Assembly (NCBI GenBank): GCA_964016885.1
Contig: OZ024740.1
Location: forward strand, 195,858,001-195,922,000
Length of the DNA: 64,000 bases
Source of the DNA: Eledone cirrhosa
Taxonomy: Eukaryota
Reading direction: 5' to 3'
Shown here: positions 2,531 to 38,088 of the stretch, piece by piece
Position numbering within the stretch: position 1 is the first letter of the stretch
Layout: every line of letters starts with the position of its first letter
Made by a program: the position numbers and the translations under genes
Notes under the pieces: generated by a model
What the model was told of the DNA's origin: nothing
Seen by the model: only the letters and a program-made list of their open reading frames with translations
Database searches by the model: none

Positions 2531-3051
2531 AAAAGTGGTTTAATAAGAGCAAAGTAGATACTGTGGACACTGATTTAGGTGCTGCTGGATGTTCTATAGT
2601 AAACTTGAATATTTTTTTTTTAAATGTCATATAAATGTTGAAATAGAGCAGAGGTAAAAAATACCTAGTGATCCTGTGGGATCACTATCAAATATTTAAT
2701 TTCCCTGATGATGTGTATAGGGAAGTCAGCTAGCAGACCTCTCTTCTTTCCATTTGTTGGTTTATCAGAAGTATAAGAAATGAAAAAAAGAAGAGATTTC
2801 TTAACTGGGAATGAAACTATACAGCTGTTAGGACTTGGTCCACTGGAAAAAAATTATCTCCACTCAATATCATTGATACATATGATATATATATATTTAT
2901 GGATAATGCAAGCATTAGTGTAGCGCATAACCATATTGAATATATATATATATATATAGTGGTGGAACACTGGAAGGTAATATCCGTAGGGGTAGATCAC
3001 TCAGTCCAAGGGACGAGTTAGGTAGAAGTGGTTACACAAGAGTTAGTTCAC

Positions 3052-3099
3052 CATACCGAGAACAATTGTTTCACCTTCACAGATCTTCAGCTCGGGATG
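3052..3099 (-). ncRNA. Minimal type I hammerhead ribozyme motif (left arm)
   Basis: Minus strand reads catcccgag CTGAAGA tctgtgaaggt GAAAC aatt GTT ctcggtatg; stem I pairs 8/9. Confidence 0.6.
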
Positions 3100-3128
3100 T
3101 GTATGGTTCCTGTTCCTATAACCATACA

Positions 3129-3176
3129 CATCCCGAGCTGAAGATCCGTGAAGGTGAAACAATTGTTCTCGGTATG
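3129..3176 (+). ncRNA. Minimal type I hammerhead ribozyme motif (right arm)
   Basis: catcccgag / CTGAAGA (3138-3144) / tcc-gtgaa-ggt / GAAAC (3156-3160) / aatt / GTT / ctcggtatg; palindromic stem III aacaattgtt; predicted cut after 3167. Confidence 0.65.
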
Positions 3177-4749
3177 GTGAACTAACTGTTGTGTAACCAC
3201 TTCTATATATATATATTCCTAGTAAATAGTATAATAAAGGAAACAAAAATGAAAAATGATTTGAGAATTAATGGAGGGAATGATGAAGATTATGAATTGT
3301 GTTGCAGTTGTGAAATTTATCCTAATGCTTATTAAAAAAAAAATGCATCTCACAACAAATGGTAATCTGTGAATTCTTCTTTGAAAAGAAAAAAAAGGAA
3401 TGAAATGTAGAACACTACAACTATTTCAAATACATGGAAAAATTAAGCAGCAGATTTTTATGGTTGATTATGAAGTAAGTCAGAAACATCAATACACTCA
3501 TATATCTCTATATCTTATTTCACCATGCAATCCCTTAAGCTTGAATGTGCTGTCTTGCCTCCTTTTCTCCCTTGTGACCAAAGCAGATATTAAAGATGTG
3601 CAAATAAACATCCCTCCTGGACAAACACATCCCAATGCTTCAGTTTTATGACAGTTACTATCAAATTCCAGCAATAAATACAAAATAAATGCTGTTTAGA
3701 ATGCTGTAAAGATATTTCTGATTGCTTGAGAAGAAAATATATTGCTTCTTTCATAAAACATTGTATGTGTGCTGCAAACAACAAATAAATATTGAGATGC
3801 AGCAAAAAGTATAAGATAGGAATATATACAACAAAGAATTAAAATCCTAATGACCAAAAAATATTCACTGGAAATTTGCATTCCATAAATATCAAATCTG
3901 AAAAATTATTCTTGTGATATGGTTGAAAACAATCTATGCTTAAACTTACTTAGCTAGTGGCAACTTTTCGCCACTAACATCATCATCACTGTTTTATGTC
4001 CATTCTTCCACGCTAGCATGGGTTAGATGAGTTGTCCTGTTGTGGGCAATGCTAGGTCAGGTGACCATGTCTTGTTCATACAGAACTGATTTTGGCTTGG
4101 TTTCTACAGCTGGATGCCCTTTCTAATGCCAAAACAGTTCAAGAACAAGTGTATCTTGAAAATCTATTTCTATCTTTTCTTAAAACTATATTTACACCAT
4201 GGAGTTTTGCTTCATTTGTTTAACTTAATCATTTCCTCTTTAATTTCATTTACACTACTACGTTCATCAAACTTCTATTTTATTTTATCAAGGGTGAAAA
4301 GCAAAATTGACTTTAGTATTTAAACTCAGCACAGAAAGCCAGAAGAAATACCACAAGGCATTTTGTTCTAATGATTCTAGAAATTTGTCTGTCACTATAT
4401 AGTAATATTGAAGTATTTTTTTCTCAGTATTTTCAATACCTTGAGAGATAAAAAGCTTCATATTTCTGTGTGGAACTAATTGGTGTCAGTTATTAGCATG
4501 TGTGTATTTTCCCCAAAGAATATGCGTGAAAAAAAAAATTCATTGTAGCTATTATTACTAAAATTACGTGCCAAGCATTACTAATAACAATTATAAAATG
4601 TTTTTTTAATTGGTCATTATCAAATTTCCATGTCAACTTAATATATAAATCAATAGAATAAGTTTTATAAGAAAGAGATTTTGTGTGTTTGTTTGTCAGC
4701 AAGAATTTATGTTGCAAGTTTTTATCTGATTATAATGGAACAGTTGTGT

Positions 4750-5062
4750 AAAGGCGTGTGGTTTTGTGGTTAGGACATTCAGCTTGTAATCATAAGGTCA
4801 TGAGTTCCATTCCCGGCAACTCGTTGTGTCCTTGAGCAAGACACTTTACTTCACATTACTTCAGCCCATTCAACTGGCAAAAATGAGTTGTACTTGTAAT
4901 TCAAAAGGCCAGCCCTGTCACATTCTGTGACACACTGAATCTCCTTGCGAACTACATTAAGGGTATGCATGTCTGTGGAATTCTCAGTCACTTGCACGCT
5001 AATTTAATGAGCAGGTTGTTCTATTGATCGGATCAACTGGAACACTCATTGTCATAACTGAT
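4750..5062 (+). mobile_element. tRNA-derived CORE-type SINE (family B)
   Basis: tRNA-like head (gtggttagg...gagttccattccc) followed by CORE-like tgtgtccttgagcaagacacttt. Relatives: 7320-7595(-), 24710-24810, 32810-33030, 34546-34626, 42345-42500(-), 48560-48790, 49255-49530, 55340-55550, 63460-63600(-). Confidence 0.7.
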
Positions 5063-5203
5063 GGGTAAACGTGAGTGCATTAGTTTAATGAACTGTAACA
5101 CAATGCTAGAGCAGAATGAGATAACTGAATGTGTAAAGTGTTTATCCAAAAGGACATATTGGGTGCAGATGAGTAATTAAAGTAAATGAGAATTTGTGGG
5201 GAA
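5062..5203 (+). repeat. ~140-bp local direct duplication, copy 2
   Basis: Matches 1731-1872; begins directly at the end of the SINE. Confidence 0.9.
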
Positions 5204-36430: not shown

Positions 36431-36546
36431 ACACACACCATGTTGCTTACATATACATAAATCATTTCACACATACAAATCTTCACATGATCACACACAC
36501 TCATGCATATACAGATTTTGTCACCGCCCCTCCCTGCGCGCGCGCG

Positions 36547-36742
36547 CACACACACACACACACACACACACACACACACACACACACACACACACACACA
36601 CACACACACACACACACACACACACACACACACACACACACACACACACACACACACACACACACACACACACACACACACACACACACACACACACACA
36701 CACACACACACACACACACACACACACACACACACACACACA
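36547..36742. repeat. (CA)n microsatellite
   Basis: ~98 perfect CA units preceded by a short (CG)n. Confidence 0.99.
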
Positions 36743-37267
36743 AAACAATAATGCTGAGTAAATGACTTCATAATGTCTTTAAATTTTGTGTGAAGATGTA
36801 AATCAATTTACTTAGATCAATAAATAAATCAGAAATCAAATTAAAAGAAAAAGTTCAACAAGAATCTGTTGCAAGTCCATAATTAGAATCATTTACAAGC
36901 ACATATGCTCTCTCCCCCTTCATCCCCCTCATGTCTTCAACATCTCCCTCTTTCTCCCCCTCATGTCTTCAACATCTCCCCTAATGTCTTCTTTCTTCTC
37001 TTTGTTCTTTATCTCTTTATGTTGGGCTGAATTCTTGTCTATCAAAGACTGAAAATATGGAGAACATTCCTGGTTGTCCTTAAATTAAGGAAAGAAAATT
37101 TACAACTTAAAAAGGATTCTGCATGGAGAAAAAAAGAACATTTTTATAAAAAATACGTTTTAAAAAATATATTTATTGCTTGATTACTTTAAATAACTAA
37201 ACTGTGTGTTTATGAAAAAAAACTAGTGACTACCTTTGTCTATATAAAAGCTTTCTCTCTTTCTCTA

Positions 37268-37832
37268 CATCATCATCATTTAACGTCTATCTTCCACGCT
37301 AGCATGGGTTTAGACGGGAATTGTCCCACTTGAGGCATGATTGGTCGTCTCACTTGTATGGGACTCTCTGGCAGGTTTTCGACGGCTGGATGCCCTTCCT
37401 AACACCAACCACGTTTACAGTGTGGACTGGGAGGTTTTTACCGTGTTACCTACACGGCCACATTACAGCGTGGACTGTGTGTTTTTTTGTCGTGACACCT
37501 ACACGACCTCATTTATTTCGGACTGGATGTTGTGGTACCAACATAACTTTACAGAGAAAGGGTTGGTGGGGGTAGTGGGAGGGGGGGGGGTGTATATTTG
37601 ATTAAGAGGTGCCTACTGACTGTAGGTTTTGCTTTGTACTTAGGCAAGGCGGGTTTTCTGTATTACTGCGTAGCGCCAAAGATCTCGGTCCAGTGACATT
37701 GTCTGAGAGAAGTATTAGTGTGTAAGGTCAGAATTTATCAAATCGCCCCAGGTTTTTCTGGGTCTGCCTACTCCGTAACTTCCGTCAATTTTTATCGCCC
37801 TGCACTTTTTTATATAGCTGTCGTCTTTCATG
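37268..37832 (-). mobile_element. Short 3' fragment of RTE LINE (same 3'UTR type as the 23290 copy)
   Basis: Encodes MKDDSYIKKCRAIKIDGSYGVGRPRKTW...; 3'UTR and (GAT)n tail align with 23290-23690. Confidence 0.9.
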
Positions 37833-37842
37833 CTAAAGTTTT

Positions 37843-38088
37843 GGTACTAAAGTTTTGTTGGGTTATGGACCCCAACTCATTCAGCCTGTCATAATAAAAA
37901 TAAAGATGGCCACCAGAGATTCAACCTCTGGTGGCCATCTTTATTTTTATTATGATAGGCTGAATGATTTGGGGCCCAGAACCCAACGAAACTTAAGTAC
38001 CTGCTTATGTTACTGTTGTAACTATACCAAACTCGTCCTATGGACTGAGTGCTCTTACCTTTGGATATTTCTATCAAACTTTTACTAC
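37843..38088. mobile_element. Second fold-back PLE-like mini-element with head-to-head hammerhead motifs
   Basis: 76-bp arms at 37843-37918 and 37926-38001 (70/76), 7-nt loop; downstream tail similar to the 2959 element; ends at (TA)/(TG) tract. Confidence 0.75.
37956..38003 (+). ncRNA. Hammerhead ribozyme motif, variant core CUGAAUGA
   Basis: tagg CTGAATGA (t/g)ttggg-8nt-cccaac GAAAC ttaa GTA cctg; palindromic stem III acttaagt; mirror copy on minus at 37843-37888. Confidence 0.6.

Follow-up and report, generated by a model that had tools for sequence, protein, structure and literature searches.

The two hammerhead fold-backs in the window, which is the whole 64,000-nucleotide stretch of DNA analysed here, are, judged from their sequence, the 5′-truncated, head-to-head ends of two related coding Penelope-like element (PLE) families, A and B, because longer copies of each run into an open reading frame (ORF) for a reverse transcriptase (RT)–endonuclease. 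It would seem probable that the hairpin shared by these remnants is the first of two motifs in the leader of the families, each likely positioning the start of reverse transcription 4–6 bases upstream of itself. An earlier note on this DNA had rightly tied hammerhead and stem-loop to a PLE RT/GIY-YIG element inserting in TA repeats: the longer copies reach the ORF, and (TA)3 lies near most ends. Its view of the pair as one diverged non-autonomous, retrozyme-like family gives way to the two coding families, and the recurrent 5′ inversion that it had proposed is too simple for outer ends that occupy two fixed sites of different kinds. The features in the window are collected in Table 1.

Penelope-like elements are the sister group of telomerase. 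How they choose their internal start sites, and how their tail and inverted ends arise, has been addressed in a single in vitro study, which bounded the RNA signal without defining it, and the enzyme that moves animal retrozymes has so far been argued from co-occurrence and phylogeny. Here one genome holds a motif at fixed offset, an intact and near-identical coding family (J) and a young passenger of retrozyme type (R), so both questions come within reach of assays on a single protein and a handful of RNA mutants. RNA-templated insertion tools would likewise benefit from a portable internal start signal.

Table 1. Features of elements 1 and 2 and of the family R array, in window coordinates.
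Feature	Position	Strand	Basis or remarks
Element 1 (family A), tailed arm	2957..3108	-	pseudo-LTR end, hammerhead, motif copy 1, tail
Motif copy 1, family A	2995..3018	-	4-bp lower stem, 1-nt bulge, 4-bp upper stem, 4 conserved bases
Minimal type I hammerhead core, palindromic stem III loop, family A	3061..3090	-	sequence
Element 1, tail-less arm	3107..3205	+	contains second hammerhead, 3138-3167 (+)
Element 2 (family B), inverted arm	37843..37917	-	adjoins LINE fragment
Element 2, tailed arm	37921..38092	+	sequence, end mapping
Minimal type I hammerhead core, family B	37960..37999	+	one extra base in CUGANGA box
Motif copy 1, family B	38031..38054	+	sequence match, cross-family stem covariation, fold prediction
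Family R array	40233..42050	-	about 2.9 tandem 632-nt units, no long ORF, (TA)n both sides
Full type I hammerhead of R unit, 6-bp stems I and III	41123..41204	-	read from sequence
Other R hammerheads	41755-41836; 40490-40571	-	read from sequence
Single motif copy of R unit	40835..40860; also 41467-41492	-	sequence

The tailed arm of element 1, which is 95.5% identical to a natural copy of family A (L121), ends at the outer site in (TA)n, 62 nt from the start of the motif, and the tail-less arm ends at the inner site, also in (TA)n, 4 nt before the point where motif copy 1 would start. In element 2 the tailed arm ends at the outer site in (TA)3(TG)n, again 62 nt from the motif start, and the inverted arm is truncated about 30 nt before reaching the inner site, the usual end of the family. 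This early cut and a GAAA to AAAA change leave the inverted arm with no second intact hammerhead. An Rfam scan returned no hammerhead and no other relevant family, the only hits being repeat-driven microRNA models below the cut-off.

The 20-mers at 2999–3018 (minus strand) and 38031–38050 (plus strand) differ only in the 3-nt loop, as had been reported, and lie 42 nt (element 1) and 31 nt (element 2) past the hammerhead cut site, inside the 30–50 nt first given. GGATATT follows both; the (TA)n said to come next is limited in element 2 to (TA)3 before (TG)n. With up to three mismatches allowed, no further match to the 20-mers was found in the window. Genome-wide the hairpin has 5,616 exact copies, as against none for the reversed-sequence control, and both hairpins are the predicted minimum-energy fold, with modest z-scores (−1.8 and −1.05). 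The bulged motif of which this hairpin is the first copy, RCTC-stem-T(N)-GAGY-RCTY, occurs twice in the leader of five families, 66–78 nt apart (67 nt from motif 1 to motif 2 in A, 66 in B, 78 in J, 67 in M and 76 in K). Across families the stem covaries in 26 of 28 motif instances, a set that was hand-picked, includes related families and was first found by a pattern requiring the R and the Y. The predicted pairing probability of the lower stem exceeds 0.5 in only 15 of the 28 and is close to 0 for the first motif of J and the second of B. The family A copy in the window has one of its four conserved bases changed, and motif 2 of this family has an extra base in the 5′ strand. No description of the twin motif turned up in the freely accessible text searched, and its novelty may also depend on Repbase and Dfam, on subscription papers, and on figures and bioRxiv supplements.

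In family A the open frame spans 722 codons and includes YRDD as well as a YVG domain at the C terminus. The same frame is covered in family B by broken copies, whose protein is 45–64% alike to that of A, and family J is an intact coding family of near-identical copies, with an ORF of 717 aa (L209:1457-3607) and 38% protein identity to A. RWR and DKT are present in A and J and can also be read in B copies; among database relatives R[WF][KR] and DK[TS] occur in 60 of 60. A and J have a CxCX5C linker, no CCHH, and CxxC and CxH around a conserved E and N, the linker motif being readable in family B at copy L134. The unit is 2,577 bp in A and longer, 3,531 bp, in J (the clade is generally below 3 kb), and 97 of the 121 ends in A and 95 of the 114 in B have (TA)3 no more than 30 nt away. 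A and B thus carry the marks of the Hydra clade, a placement that depends on motifs and on by-eye likeness to published Hydra ORFs. A Naiad PLE was rejected, since the endonuclease-type domain is C-terminal, the motif is DKT rather than DKA and a hammerhead is present. Pfam recognised neither an RT nor a GIY-YIG domain in A or J, and nothing in the pieces of A, B and J or in P0001 and P0006; its one GIY-YIG match was to P0002. An alignment-based sequence search of solved structures gave no matches, and a metagenome scan for relatives gave eight loci, none with the leader.

A Hydra-clade PLE with an ORF, a hammerhead and a (TA)n target is already a known kind of element. With the Hydra PLEs of PMC8557442, as far as the available text goes, A and B have in common the single RT–endonuclease ORF, RW[KR], DKT, CxCx5C, CxxC and CxH, as well as a hammerhead in the pseudo-LTR, (TA)n targets, partial tandems, an inverted truncated copy and a tail at one end. 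Of the families listed there, Hydra-1_Obim looks closest by eye. The earlier note had allowed that these might be ordinary Penelope ends, which is so for the kind of element and not for the hammerheads: the family A hammerhead is laid out like those of file S2, but by eye the hammerheads of A, B and J differ from the ones listed there for Hydra families. The tails also differ, at 66–80 nt here and 30–40 nt there, and no motif repeated at the two ends was found described in the available text of that paper. Evidence for the motif in other species comes from a by-eye reading of six of the published consensi. The Hydra-1_Ajap consensus, from sea cucumber, begins with two such motifs, and those of Hydra-2_Ajap and Hydra-2_Amil end with one; no clear motif was seen in Hydra-1_Amil or Hydra-1_Obim and variants only in Hydra-1_Crog, consensi that may stop short.

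Insertion ends fall at TA, 4–6 nt before motif copy 1 in tail-less ends or copy 2 in tailed ends. For family A, 30 of 79 ends followed by TA lie 4 nt before motif 1 and 46 lie within 5 nt of motif 2; for family B the distance is exactly 4 nt in 26 (motif 1) and 19 (motif 2) of 54; and for family J it is 5 nt in 30 of 83 (motif 1) and at most 3 nt in 48 (motif 2). Gaps of 0–1 nt arise where the alignment ran on by chance into the TA repeat. Exact junctions of family A number 2,057 at the inner and 3,175 at the outer site, with none in the controls. Families M and K contribute only five and two mapped ends, with gaps of 2–7 nt, and in family D the inner end is, by eye, about 10 nt from the motif. 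The hairpin might reflect mere shared ancestry, or serve translation or RNA stability, with TA dinucleotides alone setting the ends. A and B are indeed sister families whose leaders also align downstream of the hairpin, a likeness that exceeds the hairpin itself, and TA is found at every junction. We consider this very unlikely, however, as TA is common in the leaders and yet just two sites are used, the motif occurs twice per leader, also in family J with its 38% protein identity to A, and the unrelated repeat R carries it at the same offset from its end. As the earlier note had proposed, the stem-loop very likely acts as a cis signal.

The same motifs could in principle act as DNA, the endonuclease recognising GAGYRCTY in the cDNA or a duplex intermediate, cutting at a fixed distance and so resolving the insertion at two sites. 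This 8-mer is a near-palindrome in all families, the tail has been ascribed to endonuclease-mediated resolution by Craig et al, 2021 (PMC8557442), and the Drosophila tail is cited in PMC11167929 as needed for endonuclease recognition of plasmid DNA. On the other hand, the 5′ RCTC covaries with GAGY although the inserts between them range from 12 to 89 nt, which points to a folded single strand, and it is the distance from the insertion end to RCTC that is fixed, whereas the 8-mer lies at a distance that depends on the insert. In vitro, moreover, Poseidon has been seen to start RT internally (PMC11167929). Recognition as DNA therefore seems unlikely.

Under the start-site reading, the transcript of tandem copies would run on through the pseudo-LTR into the following leader, where two RT–endonuclease molecules would bind, one at motif 1 and one at motif 2. 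Each might nick one strand of the (TA)n target and prime cDNA from its own site, TA supplying two bases of pairing, and both cDNAs would stop early and then be joined head to head. The tail would then correspond to the spacing between the two motifs, and a remnant of the window type, with motif 1 only, would be a product and not a template for a new fold-back.

The pairing of the two end kinds is consistent with such a scheme. The partner end in fold-backs is of the opposite kind in 17 of 30 and 14 of 30 cases and of the same kind in none of the 60, about a dozen insertions being seen from both sides; in family J none of 79 ends has a same-kind partner. Among 67 rows there is one true same-kind fold-back, L124, with two tail-less ends. 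Seven of eight apparent same-kind pairs were dropped on inspection (four internal read-throughs, one tailed end with a deletion, one chimera and one unclear case). An inverted partner is lacking at about a third to a half of the family A ends and at more than half of those of J, and tail-less ends also occur alone.

A fold-back could instead arise from a single priming at the outer site, the cDNA folding back to copy itself (or an antisense RNA self-priming, PMC3846280) and motif 1 serving only to stop or cut the returning strand. The arms are of about equal reach in 31 of the 67 rows, and subfamily marks are common to both arms in 11 of 11 cases (about 6 expected, p about 0.002), a concordance that could also come from later gene conversion. 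However, the tail-less arm is clearly longer in 12 insertions, with up to at least 2.7 kb absent from the tailed arm, and one cDNA folding back on itself cannot make such fold-backs. As lone tail-less ends exist, and the one-motif repeat R has a fixed end of the tail-less type with no fold-back in 29, we regard single priming as improbable.

Most copies are short and short fold-backs of like size recur, as would be expected of one diverged non-autonomous, retrozyme-like family of fold-back units that are themselves mobilised. But inner joints vary from copy to copy, motif 2 is absent from the fold-backs and longer copies of each element continue into an ORF of their own, so that such a family is scarcely credible. 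One pair of fold-backs with an identical inner joint, L029 and L030, also shares its flanks and is a segmental duplicate. Elements 1 and 2 also differ from non-LTR retrozymes in that their arms are head-to-head and their families carry ORFs.

A retrozyme-like family with the same signal is present elsewhere in the window, at 40233–42050. The R units, 97–100% alike on many contigs and with a longest ATG frame of 45 aa, show the retrozyme layout: they are non-coding, stand in tandem, are dispersed in the genome and carry one type I hammerhead apiece. This makes R a candidate non-LTR retrozyme. The array in the window has its 3′ end 5 nt before the motif position; 24 of 25 R arrays end at the motif site, and 870 exact junctions were counted. 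The motif appeared anywhere in 129 of 20,000 shuffled R units. For R an inverted arm was seen in 0 of 29, and one J–R chimera was found. R may borrow the same enzyme through its single motif, which would give one fixed 3′ end and no fold-back, and copies longer than one unit would come from a tandem or circular RNA template. In the available text of PMC7229834 and of Li et al, 2026 (bioRxiv 10.64898/2026.07.22.740005), non-LTR retrozymes are, like R, tandem, non-coding and AT-rich with a type I hammerhead per unit. Their mobilisation by PLEs was proposed by Cervera and De la Pena, 2020 (PMC7229834) and in the bioRxiv paper, which describes the mechanism as still to be shown; what R adds is a specific cis motif in common with PLEs, a 3′ end of fixed position and a PLE chimera.

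The broader proposal, which we find evenly balanced, is that a duplicated bulged RNA stem-loop serves as a ruler in Hydra-clade PLEs. Two enzymes would load, one on each copy, and prime the two strands of a TA break simultaneously, explaining tail, one-sided tail and fold-back, and the motif, conserved in a mollusc-type genome, sea cucumber and coral, would let a hammerhead retrozyme be copied in, as the first defined cis signal tying an animal retrozyme to a named Penelope enzyme.

A biochemical parallel is PAc, a Poseidon element of Anolis carolinensis (Frangieh et al, 2024, PMC11167929), in which two internal RT starts bound the tail in vitro, both target strands are nicked and extended, targets are AT-rich and RNA downstream of the start is needed. 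It belongs to another clade than A, B and J, its binding motif was bounded and not defined, and its start-site RNA lacks the bulged motif; no assignment of one start site to each insertion end was found in the available text. The minimal hammerheads of PLE pseudo-LTRs (Cervera and De la Pena, 2014, PMC4209133) are, as here, of type I with a palindromic stem III, and their U3-A8 core variant occurs in J; unlike in A and B, no downstream motif was found described in what is available of that paper, where opposite-strand hammerhead pairs 100–700 bp apart are read as truncated PLEs. Penelope elements of Adineta vaga likewise have head-to-head pseudo-LTRs with a tail on one, the pseudo-LTR being regarded as a cis signal for mobilisation in trans (Arkhipova et al, 2013, PMC3846280). 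Their inversion was explained there by self-priming on an antisense template, whereas the arm-length counts here argue for two primings. None of the sequencing runs containing J is listed as RNA. Contigs from four runs of unrecorded kind, all from one study and possibly from the assembly's own sample, have loose TA ends at both J sites.

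The hairpins downstream of the hammerheads in the two fold-backs, element 1 and element 2, lie where the earlier note had placed them (see table) and differ only in the loop. The genome search suggested there for the stem-loop gave 5,616 exact matches to the 20-mer pattern in the 3.0-Gb genome, with none for the reversed control, which confirms that the stem-loop is real. Both hammerheads are of the minimal type I with a palindromic stem III loop, the distance from cut site to hairpin being 42 nt in one element and 31 nt in the other. Element 1 is a clean fold-back with a TA run on either side, while the left arm of element 2 is shortened and damaged where it adjoins a LINE fragment and its right side has only (TA)3. 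The LINE pieces of the window are presumably RTE-like.

The interpretation in the earlier note is supported in part. Its proposal that the two elements form a single non-autonomous family did not hold, as they belong to two Penelope-like element (PLE) families, A (element 1) and B (element 2), each with longer copies bearing an ORF. Among the first 30 hairpin loci fetched, L006, L011 and L018 extended about 1 kb further upstream and into the end of an ORF, and a protein search with the family A ORF gave 150 scored matches at 87-94%, the query itself excepted. One of these matches, at the A locus L121, is a 722-codon frame flanked on each side by a hammerhead-hairpin repeat, with 2,577 bp between the two. 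For family B there were 2,767 first-look candidates; it has an ORF start of its own, and its longer copies contain a broken frame with 45-64% likeness to that of A. It is almost certain that the two elements are remnants of coding PLEs. The family A protein contains RWR, DKT, YRDD, CxCx5C, CxxC and CxH and no CCHH; for the Hydra clade PMC8557442 gives RWK/DKT, CxCx5C, CxxC and CxH without CCHH, and A carries these marks. A Pfam search did not name the domains of the A and J proteins (J being a further coding PLE family), and the putative membership of A and B in the clade is based on motifs and layout. From 7,999 candidates scored, 1,080 database proteins match at E 1e-20 or better. A likeness by eye to an octopus element may point to a cephalopod host. 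PLEs have already been described with truncation, inversion, a one-ended tail, TA targets and hammerheads on opposite strands, and in identity these elements are of a known kind.

Copies of A and B end at two sharp sites, either 4 nt before the hairpin (the inner site, giving a tail-less end) or 62 nt from the hairpin start (the outer site, giving a tailed end). The 59 A ends at loci chosen by protein comprised 27 inner, 27 outer, four read-through and one other. Exact A junctions numbered 2,057 inner and 3,175 outer, with controls of zero, a ratio that means little because the patterns cover subfamilies unequally. The sequence beyond the outer site is legible in tandem copies. In family B a second motif, built like the hairpin, begins 4 nt past this site, and the same is seen in the PLE families M, K and J (the J protein is 38% identical to that of A), with the copies 66-78 nt apart; copy 2 of A is enlarged by an extra base and by an insert of 89 nt. 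The motif takes the general form RCTC, a stem with a free insert, a T or TN bulge, GAGY and RCTY. In 26 of 28 hand-picked and mutually non-independent instances R and Y form a Watson-Crick pair (17 A-T, nine G-C), a count which none of 100,000 permutations reached; one miss was wrongly picked by the rule and the other is A copy 2. The first upper-stem pair consists of partners in 20/26 (p 0.0006), and in computed folds the lower stem is favoured for just 15 of the 28. By eye, among the published consensi, Hydra-1_Ajap has two such motifs at its start, one with the A/B upper stem, Hydra-2_Ajap and Hydra-2_Amil have one at the end, Hydra-1_Crog has variants and Hydra-1_Amil and Hydra-1_Obim have no clear motif.

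Features in the window and at selected genomic loci
Feature	Location	Strand	Remarks
Hairpin of element 1	window 2999-3018	-	
Hairpin of element 2	window 38031-38050	+	
Family R, 632-nt tandem	window 40233-42050	-	each unit with a full hammerhead and a single motif
LINE piece	window 34624-36198	+	RVT_1 match at 34624-35262
LINE piece	window 23500-24260	-	
LINE piece	window 37290-37833	-	adjoins shortened arm of element 2
Hammerhead-like motif	window 23111-23155	+	GAGYRCTY absent downstream
J tandem array	L209:1256-7138; G000:C1:437198566-437213199		at least 4-5 units, intact ORFs
J-R chimera	L382:1500-1735	-	
A fold-back with foreign stretch	L008:1460-1790		
SINE-like or LINE-tail repeats	window 11616-58819		families D9-D12, D14, D15

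The tandem repeat R has no frame longer than 45 aa, and all that its unit has in common with those of A and J is chance 14-18-mers. Copies at 97-100% identity are scattered through the genome (2,146 first-look candidates). Where the ends are visible, 24 of the 25 distinct arrays finish at the TA immediately ahead of the motif, an exact junction found in 870 copies and in no control. Its 5' ends range from 27 to >1,000 nt, 23 of 29 meeting TA, and an inverted arm was seen in none of the 29. Thus the repeat with a single motif has a single fixed end and lacks fold-backs, and families with two motifs have two such ends and form fold-backs. It would seem likely that the motif is a start-site signal; the rival readings are that it is recognised by the endonuclease at the DNA level or that the hairpin reflects mere shared ancestry. 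Family R is a young candidate retrozyme, which would be moved by a Hydra-type element. Among the papers searched, few of them from subscription journals, we found none that describes a motif repeated at the two start sites of PLEs, or one common to a retrozyme and a PLE. At L382 a J inverted tail-less arm lies on the left and a J direct arm on the right, its tail switching over six shared bases into the final 71 nt of R within a single insertion; alternatively, this chimera arose by later deletion between neighbouring elements.

The two kinds of end are nearly always paired in fold-backs. In 30 A loci selected for a tail-less end, the opposite end carried a tail in 17, lacked one in none and was absent or out of view in 13. 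In 30 selected for a tailed end, the opposite end was judged tail-less by rule in 14 (one assigned correctly for the wrong reason) and by eye in about six more, and was never tailed. Family J gave 16 + 16 opposite-kind and no same-kind partners (79 ends). Looser pairing gave 59 mixed against eight same-kind rows (n=67), L124 being the one true double tail-less fold-back among the eight. Either arm may be the long one. Snap-back copying, in which one cDNA folds back on itself, is opposed by 12 clear cases where the tail-less arm includes a stretch of hundreds to thousands of bases without counterpart in the tailed arm, which argues that the arms are separate copies of RNA. Subfamily marks were common to both arms in 11/11, which fits one source for both. 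As described in PMC11167929, Poseidon in vitro starts at two internal sites, which delimit the tail, nicks and extends both strands, and requires RNA downstream of the start. We propose that each motif would bind one RT-endonuclease and place the start at a TA, 4-6 nt upstream, that is able to pair with the nicked target; two cDNAs would extend inward and be joined head-to-head, and failure of one side would leave a plain truncated copy. We lean slightly towards this paired two-enzyme step.

The tandem 3,531-bp units of family J are 99.97% alike and contain intact frames of 784 codons (717 aa when read from the first ATG that fits), and many dispersed copies have an equal score. Judged from sequence, the family is thus probably still active. 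It has a 1.2-kb 3' UTR and a hammerhead of the U3-A8 variant, described previously in PMC4209133.

At several A ends (L124:725 and 3973, L004, L008, L016, L024) (CT)n precedes (TA)n, beginning at the element's own last bases; either reiterative copying where synthesis starts or a second target may account for this. Both arms of the L008 fold-back are interrupted at the inner site by one foreign sequence, the same in each, which suggests a template switch there in a parent copy. Different families are stacked end to end within one TA run at L040:1372, L104, L158, L161 and L165, so that TA microsatellites serve several families as a common landing site. The motif also lies 35-50 nt past the cut site in at least eight further hammerhead families (L040, L045, L058, L069, L089, L114, L136, L144 and others); most occur tailed and tail-less, and some may be retrozymes. 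The hammerhead-like motif of the window matched neither the Hydra profile nor the fetched loci. Also present in the window, in many copies, are abundant repeats of 100-200 nt that are SINE-like or LINE tails and fall into two or three kinds.
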